Shown: in pieces, positions 2,564 to 18,012 of the stretch | Layout: every line of letters begins with the position of its first letter | Position numbering within the stretch: the stretch's first letter is position 1 | Assembly: GCA_012728535.1 (NCBI GenBank) | Contig: JAAYEX010000119.1 | Span: 1 to 32,545 of the forward strand | From: Clostridiaceae bacterium | GTDB lineage: Bacteria; Bacillota; Clostridia; Saccharofermentanales; DTU023 | Length of the DNA stretch: 32,545 bases | Direction: 5' to 3' | The notes under the pieces: generated by a model | The model's input: the letters and a program-made list of their open reading frames with translations, nothing else | Told to the model about the DNA's origin: nothing | Databases searched by the model: none | Made by a program: the position numbers and the translations under genes

Positions 2564-4213
2564 TTAATCGTCGCTTGGAGTAGTTGCAACTGCTGCGGGG
2601 TCTCCGGCAAAGAGTGACTTGAAGAATGCTTTTCTACCGACAAAACCCATACCAAAACTATGGCGTTCAAATTCAACACCATCAATCAGGCTTTGTGACA
2701 GATTATTGATCTTTTCCGTTTTGGCCAAAGCTTCTACACGATGGTCGATACTCTTAACATCACCTAAACCGACAAAATACATGATGTGGTAGCCATAATC
2801 GGTTTCAACGATTCCGGTATCTCCGGTCTTGCGTGACTCATCCAGGCTCCAGTCCTGGAAAGCTTCAACCATCATGCCGTAAGGTACATTTTCATATAAG
2901 CCGCCGTTATCAATGCTACCCGTGTCACTGGTGTATGTCTCAGCCAATTCGGCGAAAGCTTCTTCCGTTTTGGCACCGGCTTCAAATTCTGCCAGGATTT
3001 CTTCAGCTCGGGCCTTGATTTGATCGTTGGAAACAGGATCACCATCTGATCCGGTAACGGCTGAGGCGTCAACCAGGATGTGGCGTACGCTATAAACATA
3101 AACATCTTCAAAGTCGGCGCTGTGAAAAACCAGGGCGGTAACGGTTTTTGTGCTCTCTATCACTGTGGTGTCACCGGCTTCACGCTCTTCATCGGTCAGC
3201 CAGCTCTTTTGGTTGCTGGTGAGACGGCTCCCCTGCATCAGATAATCCAGATCTTCCGGCTGGTCCTTGAGTTTGTCAAGTTTGTCCTCATCAGTTTCAA
3301 ATTCAGCCATAGCTTCAGCGAAACTCATTTCGCCTTTTTCATAGAGCTCGAGTGCGGCGGCGGCGTCTTCAGATAATTCCTGCAAAGCTGCTTCCAGCTC
3401 ATCTTCAGCCAGCTCTTCCTCATCGTCAGTTGCCGGCAAGGAGAAGGTATAGGAAGAATATGAGTATATTTTGAGGTCAGCAGCATTCTCTTCCTTGTAC
3501 TCTTCAATCTCAGCTGCAGTAACCTCAGTCGTGTCTGCCAGATGCTGGTTATATTCCTGTAACATCAAAGATTGGCGCACAAACTTCATATAATGTGAAG
3601 AAGACACGCCCGGACCGAAATATGATTCCAGCAGCCTACCGACTCCGACGCCTTGACTCTGGGCACCCTGTGCCATATCCACTTCAAAATCTCTGACTGT
3701 TTTATCAATTTCTGCCAGTTTCTCGTCAGATAAGACGAAGCTGTCATCATTATTCATGGCCAAAACCATGGCATAGGTCGGAGCCATCTGTTCCAGGGTT
3801 AAGTCGATCAGATCATCCCTCAAGGTGCGGTCTCCTGATGTAGTACGTTCAAGCATTTCCTGCATCTCATCGGTAAAGGCATAACCCAGCTGTGCCTGCA
3901 TACTGATGTTACCTAACTCAACGTTCAGATCAGCAGGACTCATGGTCATGCTGGCTCCCGTAACTTCAGAGTTTCTGATCGTAATTGCTGTCAGGCTTTT
4001 TTGCAAAACACCAAAACGGGCGACCGCCCATACAGCAGCAACAAGAATCAGGGCTACGACAATGACGATGGAGGCAATACGTCCGACAATGCTCTTGGAG
4101 CTGATCTTCTTCTTTCTGCCGTCGCTGTCCTTTAGATTTGCCAGGCGCTGCTTGCGCTCAGCACGATCTATTTCAGCCTTCCATTCGCTTTGCTCATTTG
4201 TTTTCTTGGCCAT
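2564..4213 (-). CDS. Membrane-anchored peptidylprolyl isomerase (parvulin/PpiC domain, PrsA/SurA-like)
   Basis: Basic N-terminus followed by a TM segment (IVGRIASIVIVVALILVAAVWAV). C-terminal parvulin signature SVRHILV...GGLYENVPYGMMVEAFQDW...TDYGYHIMYF. SD AGGAAGGT upstream of the ATG. Confidence 0.8.
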   Translation of the reverse strand: MAKKTNEQSEWKAEIDRAERKQRLANLKDSDGRKKKISSKSIVGRIASIVIVVALILVAAVWAVARFGVLQKSLTAITIRNSEVTGASMTMSPADLNVELGNISMQAQLGYAFTDEMQEMLERTTSGDRTLRDDLIDLTLEQMAPTYAMVLAMNNDDSFVLSDEKLAEIDKTVRDFEVDMAQGAQSQGVGVGRLLESYFGPGVSSSHYMKFVRQSLMLQEYNQHLADTTEVTAAEIEEYKEENAADLKIYSYSSYTFSLPATDDEEELAEDELEAALQELSEDAAAALELYEKGEMSFAEAMAEFETDEDKLDKLKDQPEDLDYLMQGSRLTSNQKSWLTDEEREAGDTTVIESTKTVTALVFHSADFEDVYVYSVRHILVDASAVTGSDGDPVSNDQIKARAEEILAEFEAGAKTEEAFAELAETYTSDTGSIDNGGLYENVPYGMMVEAFQDWSLDESRKTGDTGIVETDYGYHIMYFVGLGDVKSIDHRVEALAKTEKINNLSQSLIDGVEFERHSFGMGFVGRKAFFKSLFAGDPAAVATTPSDD

Positions 4214-4325
4214 AAAGTTACCTTCCTATATAAAAAAACTCACTCAGACACCGGTCAAAGTGACCTGCTTTTAAGCTACAAACAAGAGTGTACCACAAAT
4301 GTGATAAAAATCGATCAAAACATGG

Positions 4326-4985
4326 TCAAATCAGTGACAATGATCGGGGAAGGTCCATGGCCTCTTCAATCCAGAGATCAGGCTCCAAAGCCCTCAGCTC
4401 TTCCTTGTCCATACTGGTCCAGTCGACAACCGCGCTGCGGCAACCTGCTGCATGGGCGCTTTTTACATCGTGCACACTGTCGCCGACATACAAAATCCGG
4501 GACATATCACTTATTGACATGCGTTCTGCCGCCGCCAGCAAAGGTTCCGGCCCGGGCTTATGTCCTGTGGAATCCTCCTGTGAGAGGAGAATTTCAAAAT
4601 AATCTGCTAAGCCGTGCACCCGCATACAGTCTTCCAATCCTTCACGGAAGCGCGAGGTTACAAGGCCAAGTCGGAAGTTCATCCGCTTGAGCTCTTCCAA
4701 CATGGCTACTACACCTACATATATGCCGGTATGTGTATCAGTCTTGCCTTCACACCAGATCCGATATGTGTCTACCATCTTCAGCGGATCTTCCATGCCG
4801 GGATAGGCTTCCTGCAATGGTTTACCGATTTGTGAAAGGATCATCTCCCGTGGGGGGACAGATCCGGTATATTCTTTCCAGGTATGTTCGTGTCCTGCTA
4901 CTATAAGTCCTATTGAATCAACCAGGGTGCCATCCATATCGAAGAGCACAGCTTCAACTTCAATTTTCTTCATCTTTTCCGTCAT
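4326..4985 (-). CDS. HAD-superfamily hydrolase (phosphoglycolate phosphatase/PpaX-like)
   Basis: Motif I VLFDMDGTLVDS, motif II LVTS, motif IV YVGDSVHD. Start moved to the ATG at 4985 (GGAGA 5 nt upstream); 4997 and 4973 are alternatives. Confidence 0.8.
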   Translation of the reverse strand: MTEKMKKIEVEAVLFDMDGTLVDSIGLIVAGHEHTWKEYTGSVPPREMILSQIGKPLQEAYPGMEDPLKMVDTYRIWCEGKTDTHTGIYVGVVAMLEELKRMNFRLGLVTSRFREGLEDCMRVHGLADYFEILLSQEDSTGHKPGPEPLLAAAERMSISDMSRILYVGDSVHDVKSAHAAGCRSAVVDWTSMDKEELRALEPDLWIEEAMDLPRSLSLI

Positions 4986-6348
4986 TAATATCTCCATCGG
5001 TTTCTATGGTTAAACGCAGCTGTTCGATACGATTGTCAGCCACGGATAATACCGTAAATCTCAAATTCTTGTAGACTACGTCTACCTTTTCATCCTCTTC
5101 CGGAATACGGTCCAGAAGGTCGATAACAAATCCTGAAACAGTATCATAAGCGTCATCCGGAAGTTCCAGTCCGAGTTCTTCCGACAAAGTCTCCAGAGGG
5201 CAGGAGCCGGAAATGAGCCAACTGTTGTTGCTTTGTTCCTGCAAGAGCCGCTCTTCTTCATCGTACTCGTCTTCTATATCGCCGAGAATCTCTTCGATCA
5301 GGTCTTCCATGGTGACTATTCCTGCGGTACCGCCATACTCATCAATTACTATGGCCAGCTGGACGTGTTGTCCCTGCATCTCAAAAAATAAGTCCCGGAC
5401 TACCCGTGTTTCAGGAGTGAATATCGGCTGCCTCATTTCAGCTGCCAGTGAAAAGTCACGCTTGAGCTCTTCGTCGCCCAATAAAGGCAATAAATCTTTC
5501 ACATGCAGGACACCGACAATCTTGTCGATAGTATCCTCATAAATCGGAACCCGGGTATATTTTTCTTCCTTAATCACCTCCAGAGTTTCCTCAAAGGAAG
5601 CGTCCAGCGGCAGGGCCACAATATCTGTCCGGTGTGTCATAACGTCGACTGCGCAGATATCATCAAAACGGAAGATATTACGGATCAGTTCATGATCCTT
5701 TGCTTCTTCATCCCATGAGCTTTCATCTGAATCGAGCATCTTGAAATACTCTTCAACCTGCATTATTGCATTATCATCTTCCGATTTTCCGGTAAAAAGT
5801 CTTGATAAAAACTCAACCAGTAGGTTGATCAGACGTTCCAGCGGACGCAGGACAAGCAGTAAAGGCTTGAAAAAGATCAGGCTGAATCGCAGAAAACCGA
5901 TTCTTGCCTTAGAATCATTGTCGCTTCGCCGCACCAGACGGGCCGGCAAATTTTCGCCCAGAAGAGCATAGAGGAAGAAGGCGACAAGGCTGTAGCCGAT
6001 GTAAATAAGAGCATACAGCCAGCCCTCCAAAGCTGAAGGCATCAGGAATAGCGGTGCAAAAAAGCCCATTGTCCATACAAAATATAAAAAGACAAACAAT
6101 ATTCGCAGAAGATGCAGCTCGCGCAGTAAAATCTCCATTGAGTCGTTCCTGCAAATTTTCTGCAAAGATTTGGGCAAGTCGGTTTCCTGATCGGAAGACT
6201 GTCTGAAAGCTGAGCTGCGGTTGAACTCGAGCAAGGCCATATCATACGCCTTTGATATGGCACTCATGAGCAATAATAAGATGGTCAGAAGTGATGCACC
6301 TAAGCTGTTGAAGCTACTCAAGACCGCGCTCGCAGGGTGAGGGTCCAT
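4960..6348 (-). CDS. Hemolysin-family/CNNM protein (DUF21 TM domain, CBS pair, CorC_HlyC domain)
   Basis: N-terminal multi-TM region, a CBS pair (VMTHRTDIVAL...KYTRVPIYEDTIDKIVGVLHVKDLL) and a C-terminal transporter-associated domain (SWLISGSCPLETL..DTVSGFV). Overlaps the downstream HAD gene. Confidence 0.85.
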   Translation of the reverse strand: MDPHPASAVLSSFNSLGASLLTILLLLMSAISKAYDMALLEFNRSSAFRQSSDQETDLPKSLQKICRNDSMEILLRELHLLRILFVFLYFVWTMGFFAPLFLMPSALEGWLYALIYIGYSLVAFFLYALLGENLPARLVRRSDNDSKARIGFLRFSLIFFKPLLLVLRPLERLINLLVEFLSRLFTGKSEDDNAIMQVEEYFKMLDSDESSWDEEAKDHELIRNIFRFDDICAVDVMTHRTDIVALPLDASFEETLEVIKEEKYTRVPIYEDTIDKIVGVLHVKDLLPLLGDEELKRDFSLAAEMRQPIFTPETRVVRDLFFEMQGQHVQLAIVIDEYGGTAGIVTMEDLIEEILGDIEDEYDEEERLLQEQSNNSWLISGSCPLETLSEELGLELPDDAYDTVSGFVIDLLDRIPEEDEKVDVVYKNLRFTVLSVADNRIEQLRLTIETDGDINDGKDEEN

Positions 6349-8625: not shown

Positions 8626-10008
8626 TTAGGGCGTATACGGTTTTAGTCTGGCTGTAAAATGCCGCAGAACTTTTGCCTGTTCGACCACTTCAAAACCCTG
8701 GAATTCTTCACTGCGTTTCATTACGTCAGCCAGCTTCTCAGCTACATAATCAAGATGTGACTGTGTATATGTCCGGCGGGGTATGCAAAAACGTGACAGT
8801 TCGAGAGCTGCTTCCAATTGCTCCCCAGTTTGCGGGTCCAAATCCAGGATAAAAGATCCGATATCACAGCCACGGATACCGCCTTCAAGATAAAGCGCTA
8901 CGCAGAGGGTATGGGCCGGGAAGTGATAATAGGGAATATGCGGCATTGCTTTTTTCGCATCAACAAAGATGGCATGGCCGCCAGTCGGATACTGAATCGG
9001 CACACCCAGTTCCAGGCAGCGGTCTCCCAGATACTGCGTCTGTCCGATATAGGAACGCAGGAAAATCTCATCAAGTCCTTCAGCCAGTCCCCCAGCCATG
9101 GCTCCCAGGTCTCTGCCGGTCAAGCCACCGTAGGTCAGGAAACCCTCGTAAGGGACAACTCGTGCTTTGATGCCTTTGATCAGATCGGCATCTTCTCTTA
9201 CGCCCACCAGGCCGCCCATATTGACTATGCCGTCTTTTTTAGCGGAAAAAGTGAAGGCGTCTCCTTCAGCAAACATGTCACGCACGATATCTTTAATCGG
9301 CCGGTCTTCCTGGCCTGTTTCACGTTCTTTGATGAAAAAGGCGTTCTCTGCATAACGGGCAGCATCTATGACCAGTGGAATTTTATGCTCGCGGGCAATA
9401 GCTCCCGTCTCCTGAAGATTGGCCAGGGAGACAGGCTGTCCTCCGGCTGAGTTGTTGGTAATGGTCATGACGATGCAGCCGATTTTTTCCGCACCATATT
9501 CAGCAATCAGTTCCCGGAGTCTGGCGATATCCATGTTGCCCTTAAAAGGAGCGTAGTTCTCTGTATCTGCTGCTTCAGGAGAGACGCAGTTGACAACTTT
9601 GGCACCGGTCAGGAGTACATGCCCCGATGTAGTATCGAAGTGAAAATTCGAGATAGAAATCATGCCTTCTTTCAGCAAGAGGGGGAAGAGCATATTCTCC
9701 GCAGCCCGCCCCTGGTGGACCGGCTGTATATACTGATAATTGAATATGTCATGCGCCACTTCCATCAACTGCTCGTAGCTGCGGGACCCGGCATAACTCT
9801 CATCTCCCATCATAACAGCCGCCCACTGCCGGTCGCTCATGGCATTGGTGCCGCTGTCAGTCAGCATGTCGATATAGACATCCGAAGAAGCCAGGCTGAA
9901 CATGTTGTAATCAGCCGTCTTGATTGCCTCTTCCCGTTCCTCGTAACTTGTCTGTCTGATTGCCTCAACCATCTTGATCCGGTATGGTTCCGGAATGTAC
10001 TTTGCCAT
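8626..10008 (-). CDS. Beta-eliminating lyase: tryptophanase / tyrosine phenol-lyase family (PLP)
   Basis: [46 protein letters not shown], PLP-lysine block [13 protein letters not shown], C-terminal [11 protein letters not shown]. Start moved to the ATG at 10008 (AGAGGGGA SD). Confidence 0.85.
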   Translation of the reverse strand: [460 protein letters not shown]

Positions 10009-10054
10009 ATTTTCCCCTCTTTTCATCTGTTTGATTTGTTTTTTTTGTGATTTT

Positions 10055-10987
10055 TTAAATATTTTCTTTTATAAAAGCTAAAATATCCAGATCAACTTCT
10101 TCATGGTTAGTCTCATTCAGTAATTCATGCCTGGCACCGGGATATTCCTTGACAGTTACATTTGTCATTCCCAGACTTTCATACTGGGTGGACAAGGCTC
10201 TGACCGCCTTTCCCATTTCGCCTACGGGATCATCACTGCCGCTTACTATCAGTATCGGCAGGTCGCGTCGCATCTGCTTAAGGTTGTCCTCGTCATAAAG
10301 AGTCAGTATGCCGTCAAACATGTCTCTATAAGCACGTGTCGTAAACATAAAGCTGGTGCGGGGCTCAATTACATATTGTTCACTGATAGCTGAATCCCGG
10401 CTCAGCCATTCAACACCGGTCTTGTCTTCCTCTTTGAAAGTCTTGTTGTTTACTCCCAGGACCATCTTCCTGATAAATGGGCTGCGATAACGGGAACCAC
10501 GGAATTTTCCCACAAGAGTAGCCAGGGAACGACCGGCACGCACAGCAGCTTTTGCCTGCATACCCGTACCCATAATAATGGCACCGGTTAAATCTTCATC
10601 GGGGAAACGGTAAAGGAACTGCCTCAGATAAAAGGAGCCCATGGAGTGGCCGAGAATAAAGTAAGGCAGGTCTGGATACAGGCCTCGGGTGTCTTTATAG
10701 ACTTTGTAAAGATCCTGCAGGACCAGTTCATTGCCGTTTTCTTCAGCGAAAAAACCCCAATCGTCAGTACTTTCAACTGAATCACCATGACCCAGGTGGT
10801 CATGGCCTACAACGAGGATTCCCGCTTCTGTCATGAAACGGGCAAAGCGGTCATAGCGTTCAATGTACTCCACCATTCCGTGGGAGATCTGCAGGACAGC
10901 CCACGGTTTTTCTTCAGGCAGCCAGCTCACTACATTGAGTTTGGTCTTACTGTCATTAGAAAGAATTTGCTTAACTTCACTTTTCAT
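10055..10987 (-). CDS. Alpha/beta hydrolase (lysophospholipase/monoacylglycerol lipase-like)
   Basis: Nucleophile elbow GHSMGS, HGxxE oxyanion region (SHGMVEY) and late Asp/His (GSDDPV ... ARHELL). Start moved to the ATG at 10987 (AAGAGGA SD, just after the dus stop). Confidence 0.75.
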   Translation of the reverse strand: MKSEVKQILSNDSKTKLNVVSWLPEEKPWAVLQISHGMVEYIERYDRFARFMTEAGILVVGHDHLGHGDSVESTDDWGFFAEENGNELVLQDLYKVYKDTRGLYPDLPYFILGHSMGSFYLRQFLYRFPDEDLTGAIIMGTGMQAKAAVRAGRSLATLVGKFRGSRYRSPFIRKMVLGVNNKTFKEEDKTGVEWLSRDSAISEQYVIEPRTSFMFTTRAYRDMFDGILTLYDEDNLKQMRRDLPILIVSGSDDPVGEMGKAVRALSTQYESLGMTNVTVKEYPGARHELLNETNHEEVDLDILAFIKENI

Positions 10988-12779: not shown

Positions 12780-12985
12780 AAGTACACCTTTCTGATTATT
12801 AACACACAATTAGACACTTATCATATAAATTAACATGTTCAGCTGAAATTTGCTCTTAGAGTCGCAAATATTCACCTTTTCCCACTCCTCTGACGCTATA
12901 AAAAGACTCTTAGTGTATGATAAAATACATAAGTTCAAGAATTAACAATCATAGGGTCCTGACGGACGAAAGAGTGGATATACAG

Positions 12986-15088
12986 ATGAAAAGAACAAAG
13001 TACTGTGGTCATTTCTCTGAGGGAGATGTAGGAAAAAAGGCTTGCGCCTGTGGCTGGGTACAAAGCAAGCGCGATATGGGAGGCGTCATTTTTATCGATC
13101 TAGTCGATCGGGAAGGTGTATTACAGATTGTTTTCAATCCTGAAAATACGGATGCCGATACTTTCGCCCTGGCCGAACGCGTTAGGAATCAATCCGTCCT
13201 GGAAGTAAGCGGCAATTTACGTCTGCGCGATCCTGAGACTGTAAACCCTAAAATTACTACAGGCACAGTTGAGCTCAGAGTTGAGGAAGCCACCATTCTT
13301 TCTGCTGCGGAAACTTTACCTTTTGTGCCTGAAGAAGCCGGCAATGTCAGAGATGATCTCAGATTGCGCTATCGTTATCTGGACCTGCGCCGTAGTGAGC
13401 TGAAAGACAATCTGCGTCTGCGTCATCGTGCCGGTGTCCTGATTCATTCTTTTATGGCGGATAGGGGCTTTATCGAGGTTGAGACTCCGGTACTCGGTAA
13501 AAGCACTCCGGAAGGTGCACGTGATTTCCTCGTGCCCAGCCGTGTTCATCCCGGCAACTTTTTTGCACTGCCGCAGTCACCTCAGATCTACAAGCAATTA
13601 CTCATGGTCAGCGGCTTTGACCGCTATTACCAGATAGCCCGCTGCTTCCGCGACGAAGACCAGCGTGCCGACCGTCAGCTGGAATTCACCCAGCTCGACC
13701 TGGAAATGTCTTTTGTCGAAATGGATGACGTGCTGGAAATTCTGGAAGCACTGATGAAGCACCTGGCACGTGAACTTAAAGGCGTTGAAATCGAAGCTGC
13801 CTTCCCCCGCATGTCCTGGAAGGAAGCTATGGATAAGTACGGTTCCGACAAGCCGGACTTGCGCTTTGACTTGCCCATTATCGACATCAGCGACATCGCT
13901 GAGAAATCCGATTTTTCCATATTCCGCCAGGCTTTAAAGAGCGGTGGCGTGGTACGCGCCATCTGCGTCCCCGGCAAAGCTGATTTCCCGCGATCTGTTA
14001 TAGATGATCTGACCGATTTCGCCATTTCAGAAGGCGCCAAAGGCATGGCCTGGATAGCCTGGCGTGAAGATGGTGAGATATATTCCATCCTTGATAAATA
14101 TTTCACGGAAGATCTGATGCAGGAGTTATTGGAAGCTGTCGGGGCAAAGCCCGGCGACTTCATCCTCTTCTCTGCAGACCGGCTTGATATAGTGCGGCAT
14201 GTCAGCGGTGCTATCCGCCTGCACCTGGCAGACCTGCTTGACCTGCGCACACCTGGTGAACTTAACTTTTCCTTCGTTGTCGACTTTCCCATGTTTGAGT
14301 TCAGCGAAGAAGAGGGGCGTTATGTAGCCCAGCATCATCCTTTCACCATGCCGAAACTTGAAGACCTCCATTATCTGGAAACTGAACCTGAACGCATGGA
14401 ATCCCAGGCCTACGACCTGGTTCTGAACGGCACTGAACTGGGTTCAGGCAGCATCAGAATACACGACAGAGACATTCAGGCACGTGTATTCCGCCAACTC
14501 GGGCTTTCAGAGGAAGATATCCGGGACCGTTTCGGCTTCTTGCTTGATGCCTTCCGTTTCGGAACACCGCCGCACGGTGGATTTGCCCTGGGTCTGGACC
14601 GCCTGATCATGTTGCTGGCGAACGCGCCCTCCCTGCGCGAGGTAATCGCCTTTCCCAAGCTGAGCAACGCTTCTGACCCCCTCACTGATGCGCCTAGTAC
14701 GGTAGACCGGCAACAGCTGGACGAACTGCATATCGTTCTTGCAGCTGATGTGGTTGCCGGCAGCGAGATTTTCAGCGGCAAAAAGGATGCACCCGCAGCA
14801 AAGACCTTCAACCTGGAGCACTTGGAACAGCTGTCCAATATTATGCTGACTGAATCCGAACGGGTCGGTATGCAAACCGAGATTGAAACCCTGATCGATT
14901 TCGCAGATCAAATGGCAGACCTGGATACCAGGGCGGCAGAGCCTACCCGTTCTATGATTACGGAGCATGGGGTGTTTCAGGGAGAAGAGCGTGAGCCCTC
15001 TCTCAGCCAGGAAGATGCTCTGGCAAATGCCGCCGAGTCTGAAGACGGAGCCTTTGTAGTTCCGGCCGCAGTGGAACAGGAGCTATAA
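12986..15088 (+). CDS. aspS: Aspartate--tRNA ligase (bacterial type, GAD insertion) fused to a C-terminal GatC domain
   Basis: OB anticodon-binding domain (GWVQSKRDMGGVIFIDLVDREG). Class II motifs (FRDEDQRADRQLEFTQLD; GTELGSGSIRIH; GGFALGLDR). GAD insertion between them. The ORF continues without a stop through a GatC-like tail. Start set at the ATG at 12986 (MKRTKYCG). Confidence 0.9.
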   Translation: MKRTKYCGHFSEGDVGKKACACGWVQSKRDMGGVIFIDLVDREGVLQIVFNPENTDADTFALAERVRNQSVLEVSGNLRLRDPETVNPKITTGTVELRVEEATILSAAETLPFVPEEAGNVRDDLRLRYRYLDLRRSELKDNLRLRHRAGVLIHSFMADRGFIEVETPVLGKSTPEGARDFLVPSRVHPGNFFALPQSPQIYKQLLMVSGFDRYYQIARCFRDEDQRADRQLEFTQLDLEMSFVEMDDVLEILEALMKHLARELKGVEIEAAFPRMSWKEAMDKYGSDKPDLRFDLPIIDISDIAEKSDFSIFRQALKSGGVVRAICVPGKADFPRSVIDDLTDFAISEGAKGMAWIAWREDGEIYSILDKYFTEDLMQELLEAVGAKPGDFILFSADRLDIVRHVSGAIRLHLADLLDLRTPGELNFSFVVDFPMFEFSEEEGRYVAQHHPFTMPKLEDLHYLETEPERMESQAYDLVLNGTELGSGSIRIHDRDIQARVFRQLGLSEEDIRDRFGFLLDAFRFGTPPHGGFALGLDRLIMLLANAPSLREVIAFPKLSNASDPLTDAPSTVDRQQLDELHIVLAADVVAGSEIFSGKKDAPAAKTFNLEHLEQLSNIMLTESERVGMQTEIETLIDFADQMADLDTRAAEPTRSMITEHGVFQGEEREPSLSQEDALANAAESEDGAFVVPAAVEQEL
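14807..15085 (+). other. gatC: GatC-like domain (amidotransferase subunit C) encoded in frame as the last 93 codons of aspS
   Basis: FNLEHLEQLSNIMLTESE..LIDFADQMADLDTRAAEPT..GVFQGEEREPSLSQEDALANAAESEDGAFVVP aligns end to end with GatC (S. aureus ..EEVEHIANLARLQISPEE..ILDFAKQ..DTEGVEPT..NVLREDK..ALKNAKETEDGQFKVP, from memory). There is no separate gatC ORF before gatA. Confidence 0.8.
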
Positions 15089-16573
15089 ATGTTAAAAGAA
15101 AAAATGACAATCTATGAAATAGGCGCAGCTTTGCGCCGCAAAGACTTTTCTTCCCGCGAACTGACAGAATCAATTCTGGATAAATGCGCCAAGCAGGAAG
15201 ATCGGATCGGCGCTTACATCACTCTGACTGAAAAGGAAGCTCTGCAGCAAGCTGACCGGGTAGACAAGCTTCTGGCCGCGGGGGCTGAGCTGCCGCTGCT
15301 GGCAGGTATTCCGCTGGCAGTCAAGGACAATATCGCCGTTAGGGGTATTCCCCTGACAGCAGGTTCAAAAATGCTGGAAACTTTCCGTCCGCCATACAGC
15401 GCATTTGTCTGGGACGAACTTGTAAAAGCTCAGGCAGTCCTGGTCGGAAAAAGCAACATGGATGAATTCGGCATGGGTTTTTCCACAGAAAACTCATACT
15501 TTAAAACGACAAGAAACCCGCATGACCTGACCCGCATTCCCGGCGGCAGTACGGGTGGGTCCGCAGCAGCTGTGGCGAGCGGTGAAGCAATCTATGCTCT
15601 TGGTACTGATACCGGCGGTTCAATCCGCCAGCCTGCTGCACATTGTGGCGTCGTCGGTCTGCGCCCCAGCTATGGCCTTGTTTCTCGCCGTGGAGTCTCC
15701 GCACTGGCTTCTTCCATGGATACGGTCGGTCCTCTGACCAGAACCGTCCGCGACAACATGATTGTCCTTTCGGCGATCACAGCCCGGGATGCCAAAGACT
15801 GCTCTTCCAGCAGACATGTTTTCAAACTTGATGAAGATCTTTTAAAGCAAGACAGTTCAGAGACCAAGCCCCTGACCGGTATCAGCATAGGCTGGCCGGA
15901 GCAGTGTTTTGATATCGAGCTGGAGGAAGACGTCAGGCGGGGTCTTGAAGCCGCTTTGAAAGTTTTCGAATCACTGGGAGCGACAATCAAAAAGCTGCAA
16001 ATCAGCTCGCTGAATGCCGCCCTTTCCGCCTACTACATTCTAATGACCGCTGAAGCAGCTTCAAACCTGGGACGCTTTGATGGTGTCCATTACGGTTACC
16101 GCAGCCCCGGGGCTGAAAAGTTGGAAGACCTTTATATCAACTCCCGCTCCGAAGCTTTCGGCTATGAGGTTAAGCGTCGTATCCTGCTGGGCAACTTTGC
16201 ACTTTCTGAAGAATACTACGAGGACTATTTCGTAAAGGCGCAGAGGGTCCGCACGGTTGTCATCCGCGAGTTCACAGGACTGTTGGAAGACTGTGACCTG
16301 CTTTTCATGCCTGTGACCACTTCAACGGCAGGAAAAATCGGTTCAGCTCCGAAAAATCCGGTCGATCTGTACCGCGGCGACATCTTCACAACGCCGGTAT
16401 CAGTGGCCGGGCTGCCCGCACTGTCACTGCCCTGCGGCAAAGATTCACAGGGTCTGCCTATCGGCATGCAGCTGGTCGGCAGGCAATTCGATGAGGCTTT
16501 GCTCTATCGCGTCGGAGCTGCTTACGAAGACCGGCATAGCCCGGCTTTTGAACTGGCGGAGGTAAAAGCATGA
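15089..16573 (+). CDS. gatA: Asp-tRNA(Asn)/Glu-tRNA(Gln) amidotransferase subunit A
   Basis: Amidase signature AVKDNI ... [14 protein letters not shown] ... [12 protein letters not shown]. The ATG directly abuts the aspS TAA. The stop overlaps the gatB ATG (ATGA). Confidence 0.92.
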
Positions 16574-18012
16574 GCATGAAAAACCACAAAAAGTACGAAG
16601 CTGTCATTGGCCTGGAAGTTCACGTAGAGCTCAAGACCAAATACAAAATTTTCTGTGACTGCGAGGTCACTTTCGGCGAAGAGCCCAATACTCATGTCTG
16701 CCCGGTCTGCCTGGCAATGCCCGGGACTCTTCCTGTTTTAAATCATGAGGTGGTTGAATTCGCAGTACGCGCCGGCCTGGTGACTCATTGCGAGATTTCG
16801 CATTCCTAACGCATCGACCGAAAAAACTATTTCTACCCTGACCTGGCCAAGGCCTACCAGCTGTCACAAGCTGATGAGCCGCTTTGCCTGAACGGCTATG
16901 TGGATGTAAGCACAGAAGATGGAAGATCCAGAATCCGTGTTAACCGCATACACATCGAGGAAGATGCCGGCAAACTGATTCACACCGACAAAGGCAGCTC
17001 GCTGGTTGATATGAACCGTGGCGGTGTGCCTCTGATTGAGATTGTTTCTGAGCCGGATATTCACTCGGCAGATGAAGCTGTCGCCTACCTGCGGAAATTG
17101 CGCTCTCTGGTTCGCTACACCGGCATTTCCGATGGCCGCATGAACGAAGGTTCCCTGCGCTGTGACGTCAACCTTTCTATCAGAGAAAGGGGCACAGAAC
17201 GATTGGGCACCCGGGTCGAGATGAAAAACATCAACTCTTTCAACTATGTCGCCAAGGCTATTGAAAGTGAGTTCGCCCGTCAGGTTTCCATCCTGGATGA
17301 AGGTGGAATAATCACCCAGGAAACGCGCCGCTATGATGAAAAGACTGATCAGACAACAGTCATGCGCAGCAAGGAAGATGCGGCGGACTATCGTTACTTC
17401 CCGGATCCTGATCTCTGTCGAGTCGAAGTAAGTGATGCAGAAATAGCAGAGATACGTGCCTCTATCCCTAAAATGGCTGAGGAGCGCAAAGAAGAGTATA
17501 TCGAAAGATTCTCTCTCAGTGATTATGAAGCCGAGCGCCTGACTGAAGACAAGGTTGTGGCGGATTTCTTTGAAACTGCAGCTAATGAGAGCCGCTATCC
17601 CAAAGTTCTGTCAAGTCTGATCATGACAGAACTGTCTCCTCTCTTTGATGATGAGGGAGACTCTGTGTTGCCGCTTGAAGCCCTCAGCCTGGCAAAACTT
17701 GCCGACCTCCTGGGTGATGAAAAAATCAACAGCAACACCGGAAAAAAAGTCCTGCGCCTGCTATTGGAAGATGACTTTGATCCGGAAGCTTACGTCAGAG
17801 AAGAAAATCTGTTGCAGATCACGGATCGCGAAGAGCTCCTGGAGATAGTGGAAAGTGCTCTTGCAGCTAACCGGAAGGCAGTTGAAGATTACCGCAAGGG
17901 TAAGGAAACTGCGATTAAAGCAATCATCGGACGTGTGATGAAAGAAACCTCCGGCCGCGCCTACCCGCTGCTGGTTGAAGAAATGATACTTGAAAAGATC
18001 AGTGAAAATTAA
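16570..18012 (+). pseudogene. gatB: Asp-tRNA(Asn)/Glu-tRNA(Gln) amidotransferase subunit B interrupted by one in-frame TAA (16807-16809)
   Basis: ORFs 16570..16809 and 16900..18012 share one frame. Reading through gives ..[26 protein letters not shown].., the canonical GatB block. The rest is intact ([45 protein letters not shown], YqeY-like tail). It could instead be an assembly error or readthrough. Confidence 0.85.

Follow-up and report, generated by a model that had tools for sequence, protein, structure and literature searches.

Can the synthetase and the amidotransferase that together make asparaginyl-tRNA be one covalent machine in nature? The question is raised by a contig of a Clostridiaceae bacterium (JAAYEX010000119.1, assembly GCA_012728535.1), analysed over its whole length of 32,545 nucleotides (the window). 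It carries a gene, aspS::gatC, that encodes an aspartyl-tRNA synthetase (AspRS) running on in frame into GatC, a subunit of the amidotransferase GatCAB, directly ahead of gatA and gatB (Table 1). We consider it likely, judging from sequence comparisons, that this is a natural AspRS-GatC fusion in which GatC sits on a flexible tail of about 20 residues, and that it is co-transcribed with gatA and gatB and forms a covalently tethered Asn-transamidosome. The locus is thus probably a hard-wired machine for Asn-tRNA.

Results

One reading frame encodes AspRS and GatC

The stretch from 12917 to 15088 is a single open frame in the open reading frame (ORF) listing of the window, and translation from the ATG at 12986 yields 700 aa, as long as nearly all close homologues. 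We take 12986 as the likely start because a TAG immediately precedes the equivalent ATG in a relative (L003). An upstream in-frame ATG at 12917 would add 23 residues (12917-12985) to give 723 codons, and a 723-aa form is called in some database entries. The sequence has no stop, frameshift or gap across 14600-15200, linker included, which agrees with the uninterrupted 700-codon frame of the initial annotation.

The N-terminal part has the make-up of a full bacterial-type AspRS, as had been proposed from the sequence. In Pfam, tRNA_anti-codon (PF01336) matches residues 22-105 (51.7 bits), tRNA-synt_2 (PF00152) residues 124-559 (402.9 bits) and GAD (PF02938) residues 313-403 (80 bits), and all three lie above their cut-offs. 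So do the NCBIfam models for aspS, NF001750 with 811 bits (cut-off 443) and TIGR00459 with 738 bits (cut-off 374). With an oligonucleotide-binding (OB) fold and a class II core above curated cut-offs and a GAD domain present, the window protein is classed as a bacterial-type class IIb AspRS. The GAD insertion domain sets bacterial-type apart from archaeal-type AspRS (PMC4206432). The best match in the Protein Data Bank (PDB), covering residues 1-586, is 4wj3_M, the Asp/Asn ligase of the Pseudomonas aeruginosa transamidosome. An AlphaFold2 (AF2) monomer model was built from an alignment of 64 homologues and has a mean predicted local distance difference test score (pLDDT) of 77.6; the AspRS body is confident in it, mostly above 85.

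The tail beyond the linker is, by homology, a complete GatC, because GatC profiles and solved GatC chains match it over their whole length. PF02686 covers residues 621-692 with 41.8 bits (cut-off 23), and the NCBIfam gatC model TIGR00135 scores 50.6 bits (cut-off 47.1) with positions 5-93 of 93 covered. A hidden Markov model (HMM) trained on 87 GatC proteins that stand alone (88-101 aa) aligns its positions 6-95 of 95 with residues 609-698 (70 bits, E 6e-20). The same model detects no second GatC among the stop-to-stop frames of the window, consistent with the earlier remark that no free-standing gatC precedes gatA. The C-terminal profile of the family furthermore matches the solved GatC chains of Staphylococcus aureus (2df4_C, residues 6-95), Aquifex (3h0l_C), P. 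aeruginosa (4wj3_C, residues 9-103) and Thermus thermophilus (3kfu_G). In a profile search of a library of representatives at 50% identity, free GatC aligns from about its residue 7 to its end; this library hides full-length fusions behind AspRS representatives and lists junction fragments and free GatCs, so it yields no cluster count. The AF2 model places GatC-like helices at residues 610-617 and 623-644 after the linker, and the remainder of the tail is disordered in the monomer, as we would expect of GatC modelled without GatA and GatB.

The fusion gene leads straight into the other two amidotransferase genes. Its TAA (15086-15088) abuts the gatA ATG at 15089, and the gatA TGA overlaps the gatB ATG at 16570-16573, just as first described. 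For its part, gatA has a good Shine-Dalgarno sequence of its own, which lies within the end of the GatC coding region, 6 nt before the gatA ATG; in relatives, gatA has Shine-Dalgarno sequences of the GGAGG type within a spacer of 5-25 nt.

The fusion is lineage-wide in Clostridia

The same architecture recurs in more than 200 protein clusters (at 90% identity), down to 55% identity. The best 120 homologues, drawn from NCBI, ENA, JGI and Logan assemblies, are 666-750 aa long (most 683-721), and AspRS and PF02686 domains occur together in all but one of the 119 that are not the window protein itself. The exception, P0060, has 638 aa and aligns over 85% of the query. With a Fournierella protein as seed, a second search returned the same domains in 120 of 120 listed proteins, about 100 of which are clusters that were not in the first listing. 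The junction is also open in proteins that are truncated by a contig end. A search with the tail alone listed five matches, GatC sharing few exact words.

Among the matches listed, carriers belong to the Oscillospiraceae, Christensenellales, Fusibacteraceae and some Lachnospirales, and the closest is Mageeibacillus sp. UBA5439 (Oscillospiraceae), with 93% identity in the AspRS body. Three carriers are cultured: Allofournierella massiliensis (Oscillospiraceae), Fusibacter sp. 3D3 (Fusibacteraceae) and Clostridiaceae bacterium NSJ-31.

Genomic context was compared at 85 loci, made up of one genome per GTDB species (at least 80 loci) and five loci obtained by exact protein look-up (L002-L006). 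The relative L001 was left out of this set; it has a scaffold N-gap in its linker. Loci were classed by how far the AspRS frame extends, as tblastn with the window tail, which is too divergent, missed many fusions. By this measure 56 of the 85 are fusions, with a tail of 102-117 codons after the AspRS body that ends in TAA, TAG or TGA. Downstream gatA is present in 55 and gatB in 50. The single fusion locus that lacks gatA is cut by a contig end, and gatA follows immediately in all the others (55/56). No separate gatC occurs within 4 kb of the fusion gene at any of the 56 loci, where the free-GatC HMM matches only the tail of the AspRS frame. The frame is open through the junction at every one of them, so the orthologues have none of the stops or frameshifts for which the initial annotation had advised looking. 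The remaining 29 loci, mostly from Lachnospiraceae and Anaerotignum, carry an unfused aspS with a tail of 3-16 codons, and none has gatA or gatB within 4 kb. On the strength of these comparisons, we conclude that the fusion is genuine, vertically conserved and lineage-wide in Clostridia and is not an assembly artefact.

Two sets of loci deserve a remark on their origin. One contig from an error-prone long-read assembly (L006, ENA contig_756) has an intact fusion frame of 696 codons; its TrmK, NFACT and gatB genes (2026-2698, 3758-5522 and 9552-10984) are each broken into several segments, apparently through frameshift errors. The bins that hold L014, L032 and L039 bear the labels Bacteroidaceae, Prevotella or Bacteroides. 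In sequence these three loci are ordinary clostridial fusions that have T-box leaders, so the bins are probably mislabelled or contaminated.

T-box leaders tie the operon of relatives to asparagine

In 7 of 17 relatives, Rfam places a T-box (RF00230) immediately ahead of the fusion gene, with 98-129 bits against a gathering score of 93. All seven show GAA-N-AAC-A in the Rfam alignments as the eight unpaired bases at the 3' side of the specifier loop. Directly ahead of the conserved purine stands AAC, an Asn codon, and not GAC, an Asp codon. The register of the specifier was fixed from the Rfam structure line together with the known GAA-codon-A layout of Stem I of glyQ. The variable base is usually G, which creates an overlapping GAA (Glu) triplet like the one reported for the dual-specificity NT-box of C. 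acetobutylicum; in L011 and L036 it is A, which gives AAA.

A wider survey with nhmmer and a Stem I model, followed by hmmalign, detected leaders at 35 of the 56 fusion loci, 28 beyond the seven found by Rfam. The specifier is AAC in 35 of 35, and a TGGNACCRCG antiterminator box lies 100-140 nt downstream in 32. The model was made from AAC-bearing seeds, but this bias cannot explain the unanimity because the codon occupies only 3 of the 110 model positions. No T-box was detected at unfused aspS loci, which hence offer no GAC specifier for comparison.

An operon with such leaders would be induced by uncharged tRNA(Asn), which therefore places the fused AspRS of these relatives in Asn-tRNA(Asn) synthesis. 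In the T-box-bearing relatives the operon thus appears to serve Asn-tRNA(Asn) synthesis, and the link to tRNA-dependent asparagine synthesis that had been suggested for the window gains support from their Asn-specific leaders.

Table 1. Positions of the fusion gene, its parts and its downstream partners in the window, and of T-box leaders in relatives (numbered within each relative's own sequence).
Feature	Position	Strand	Details and evidence
aspS::gatC fusion ORF	12986..15088	+	700 codons plus TAA; open-frame listing, Pfam, NCBIfam
AspRS body, residues 1-586	12986..14743	+	OB-fold anticodon-binding domain, class II catalytic core, GAD insertion; Pfam, NF001750, PDB match, AF2
Linker, about residues 587-606	14744..14803	+	DVVAGSEIFSGKKDAPAAKT; 118-homologue alignment, dN/dS, AF2
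Full-length GatC domain, about residues 607-700	14804..15085	+	PF02686, TIGR00135, free-GatC HMM, solved GatC chains, dN/dS
Shine-Dalgarno sequence for gatA	15078..15082	+	AGGAG; sequence read
gatA	15089..16573	+	494 aa, amidase family; PF01425, 464 bits
gatB	16570..18012	+	480 codons, interrupted by in-frame TAA; GatB_N and GatB_Yqey on both pieces (Pfam)
T-box leader, L005	5694-5930		Rfam
T-box leader, L013	156-398		Rfam
T-box leader, L016	1054-1336		Rfam
T-box leader, L021	1856-2115		Rfam
T-box leader, L024	1956-2195		Rfam
T-box leader, L036	2051-2293		Rfam
T-box leader, L047	1979-2234		Rfam

A proposed tethered Asn-transamidosome and the points against it

AspRS is a dimer, and the architecture suggests that each of its protomers would hold one GatAB, giving a covalent Asn-transamidosome with a fixed 1:1 ratio. 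The particle would have the composition (AspRS-GatC)2(GatA)2(GatB)2 and would be independent of tRNA. By homology, the GatC domain would wrap and stabilise GatA and GatB as free GatC does. Regulation in the relatives suggests that the AspRS moiety would charge tRNA(Asn) with Asp, and the tethered amidotransferase could then convert Asp-tRNA(Asn) to Asn-tRNA(Asn) close by, near its site of synthesis. The fixed 1:1 tethering of synthetase and amidotransferase that had been claimed would follow from the architecture itself; channelling is what we infer from the covalent link. GatC is required for GatA folding and GatB binding (review PMC2330236). Transamidosomes are usually transient and tRNA-dependent, and mistranslation is tuned by how stable they are; as a rule an Asn-transamidosome forms in the presence of tRNA only, and the mycobacterial complex needs it (PMC8406222).

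Several observations weigh against a tethered Asn-transamidosome in this bacterium. The first concerns regulation. The T-box is absent from the window's own clade (the window, L003 and L007), and the window gives no RF00230 match even at E up to 1. The Asn link of the window gene is thus extrapolated from relatives that are 55-66% identical, because its own clade lacks the leader. The second concerns reach. Only about 10-15 residues of the connecting stretch are homologous to neither AspRS nor GatC, and these would have to span the AspRS-to-GatC distance of PDB 4WJ3.

The third concerns tRNA specificity. Suzuki et al. reportedly described in 2015 that His31 and Gly82 (P. aeruginosa numbering) mark bacterial non-discriminating AspRS. 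Both are absent here: across 118 homologues the family has an invariant Met31, and Glu or Asp at the position of Gly82. We give this criterion little weight. Position 31 is His in the non-discriminating AspRS of P. aeruginosa, Leu in the discriminating enzymes of E. coli and T. thermophilus, and Met in the fusion family.

The last is the state of gatB, in which the initial annotation had overlooked a premature in-frame TAA at 16807-16809 (codon 80). The site is TCC (Ser) in the close relatives L001, L003 and L007, a two-base difference. The frame is the same on both sides of the TAA and the rest of the gene is intact. The ratio of nonsynonymous to synonymous substitution rates (dN/dS) is 0.06 for gatB, as in relatives, which indicates strong purifying selection, and 0.11-0.13 for gatA; about 20 neighbouring genes are intact. 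The TAA is either a very recent nonsense mutation in the population or a consensus error, and not long-standing decay. Stop-codon reassignment was considered for this TAA and for the in-frame fusion-gatA junction and was rejected: in relatives the fusion frame closes with any of TAA, TAG and TGA and a spacer comes after it, and some 20 other genes of the window are intact.

Which tRNA does the fused AspRS serve?

Indirect pointers suggest that the fused AspRS may be non-discriminating, namely the AAC specifier in all 35 leaders and the Asp/Asn ligase as best PDB match. Met31, Thr85 and Asn87 (nt 13076-13078, 13238-13240 and 13244-13246) lie in the anticodon-binding domain and are invariant in the 118 fusion homologues, and this trio may mark the tRNA specificity of the fused clade.

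A narrower role is conceivable, though we regard it as doubtful. On this reading the fused enzyme, instead of acting as a general AspRS, would be a paralogue reserved wholly or chiefly for tRNA(Asn), as GluRS2 of Helicobacter is for tRNA(Gln). Its operon could then stand in by itself for an asparaginyl-tRNA synthetase, as a set of three polypeptides switched on by uncharged tRNA(Asn) and obligately assembled independently of tRNA, with Met31, Thr85 and Asn87 as its signature. The window itself contains no asnS, glnS, asnA or asnB, no second aspS and no tRNA genes within its 32.5 kb.

At the other extreme, the join could be a neutral one of the 'Rosetta-stone' kind, in which a discriminating housekeeping AspRS is tethered without any channelling role to a GatCAB that works mainly on Gln-tRNA(Gln). 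The missing His31 and Gly82 (the reported marks named above), the generic aspartate--tRNA ligase class that NCBIfam assigns to the body and the lack of a T-box in the window's clade would fit such a history. We nevertheless hold it to be unlikely, as the T-box specifier is always AAC and never GAC in the 35 loci, the tail and gatAB co-occur almost perfectly, and the closest solved relative is the Asp/Asn ligase of a transamidosome.

Does GatC stay attached?

A tethered Asn-transamidosome also presupposes that GatC remains on its tail. One ORF might be transcribed and translated, and free GatC might still be the functional form, either cut loose at the linker by a protease or translated from an internal start. 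In that case the fusion would secure co-expression and stoichiometry only, with no tethering. The linker would permit this. In the 118 homologues it is rich in A, K, S, E, G and R and has 13-25 residues, most often 20; it is disordered in the AF2 model (pLDDT below 50 for residues 585-607), and its dN/dS of 0.3-0.87 between the window and its two closest relatives indicates nearly neutral evolution without purifying selection, so that it could be accessible to proteases. Possible start codons (ATG, GTG and TTG) also lie in frame near the beginning of GatC in the window. The initial annotation was right that the linker has no ATG; its GTG is not the only alternative, since codons 620 and 629 of the GatC part are ATG and its codon 613 is TTG, none of them conserved.

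However, the six diverse loci that were compared as DNA share no in-frame start codon with a Shine-Dalgarno sequence at the junction. No Met is conserved there either, and any Met near the junction occurs in only 27 of the 118 homologues. A GatC that began at codon 620 would lack its first helix, and L003 has Arg at this position. An open frame kept across more than 200 clusters, furthermore, exceeds what co-expression needs, as gatA and gatB are coupled without being fused. We therefore think it improbable that free GatC is the working form.

Still less probable is that the tail is a decayed or re-purposed remnant of GatC whose role has passed to a separate gatC elsewhere in the genome. The median identity of the 118 full-length homologues to the window protein is 29% for the tail and 63% for the AspRS body, and the Pfam and TIGRFAM scores of the tail are modest. 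Low sequence conservation is normal for GatC, however, and the tail covers the whole GatC profile. Its dN/dS of 0.16-0.22 between the window and its two closest relatives is higher than the 0.06-0.08 of the AspRS body and indicates that the GatC part is under purifying selection. Neither the window nor the 4 kb around each of the 56 fusion genes holds another GatC ORF.

The unexpected gatB stop in the same window and the N-gap in the linker of L001 might raise the suspicion of an artefact of sequencing or assembly, be it a chimeric contig, a frameshift or an overlooked stop. Such an artefact is already effectively refuted, as the open frame recurs in independent NCBI, ENA, JGI and Logan assemblies and in isolate genomes, survives in the error-prone contig L006 whose other genes are frameshifted, and passes the junction at all 56 fusion-type loci.

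An unrelated gene pair in the window

Positions 329-2482 encode a MurT-like ligase with a MurT_C domain, followed by a 238-aa ORF without a Pfam match. The two genes are unrelated to the fusion and may be a MurT/GatD pair for lipid II amidation.

Discussion

The novelty implied by the initial annotation does not stand. The architecture is widespread in Clostridia, and databases have already flagged it. NCBIfam holds a curated 723-position model, NF009460 (PRK12820), named 'bifunctional aspartyl-tRNA synthetase/aspartyl/glutamyl-tRNA amidotransferase subunit C', and UniRef labels one member of the clostridial family 'Multifunctional fusion protein'. NF009460 has the same end-to-end order of AspRS, linker and C-terminal GatC, and the clostridial fusions align to positions 24-719 of its 723. 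They are not members of this equivalog because their scores, 650 bits for the window protein and 578-664 for ten diverse relatives, fall below the cut-off of 1379; they would therefore seem to be a different lineage with the same architecture. The literature we searched contains no description of a natural AspRS-GatC fusion, which is weak evidence of absence, as most subscription journals are outside its coverage. The architecture is thus widespread and under-studied rather than new.

Several known systems resemble parts of this arrangement. The non-covalent Asn-transamidosomes of P. aeruginosa (4WJ3), T. thermophilus (3KFU) and M. tuberculosis comprise the same components, a non-discriminating AspRS (a character that we presume here), GatCAB and tRNA(Asn). 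Their presumed task is also the same, namely that Asp-tRNA(Asn) is made and amidated without release. What sets the fusion apart is that a single polypeptide holds both the synthetase and the GatC scaffold, which would fix their ratio and let them associate at any concentration, with or without tRNA.

The nearest engineered counterpart is chain C of PDB 3AL0, a crystal of the Thermotoga maritima Gln-transamidosome, which is described as 'subunit C,Linker,Glutamate--tRNA ligase 2'. GatC is likewise joined covalently to the non-discriminating synthetase of its pathway. That chain is artificial, however, with GatC at the N-terminus in reversed order and a class I GluRS of the Gln pathway as partner. 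It served to stabilise the crystallised complex and shows that a tether of this kind is workable in principle. GatC is also covalently joined to a pathway component in a Mycobacterium smegmatis gatC-gatA fusion (PMC7541841), but this is a laboratory mutation that lowers fidelity, and the partner is GatA, not the synthetase.

The regulation has a counterpart as well. Two reports (PMC4574755; PMC4206432), which cite Saad et al. 2012 and 2013, describe an 'NT-box' T-box of C. acetobutylicum, with an 8-nt specifier loop of the dual-codon class, that controls a tRNA-dependent amidation operon. It is likewise a clostridial, T-box-run transamidation route to Asn-tRNA(Asn), and the GAA-N-AAC-A loop of our relatives is of the same 8-nt class. 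The C. acetobutylicum operon presumably keeps its genes separate. The window's own operon differs from it in lacking a T-box.

A natural covalent transamidosome would be a ready-made system for asking whether channelling of Asp-tRNA(Asn) is obligatory, how the acceptor end is handed over from the synthetase to GatB, and what the cell gains from a fixed stoichiometry. Such experiments are feasible, since many Clostridia of guts and digesters carry the fusion and culturable strains are among them. It also sets an annotation trap. Carrier genomes appear to lack gatC because NCBI names the clostridial fusions only 'aspartate--tRNA ligase', and this apparent lack could mislead reconstructions of the pathways by which these bacteria charge tRNA with Asn and Gln.

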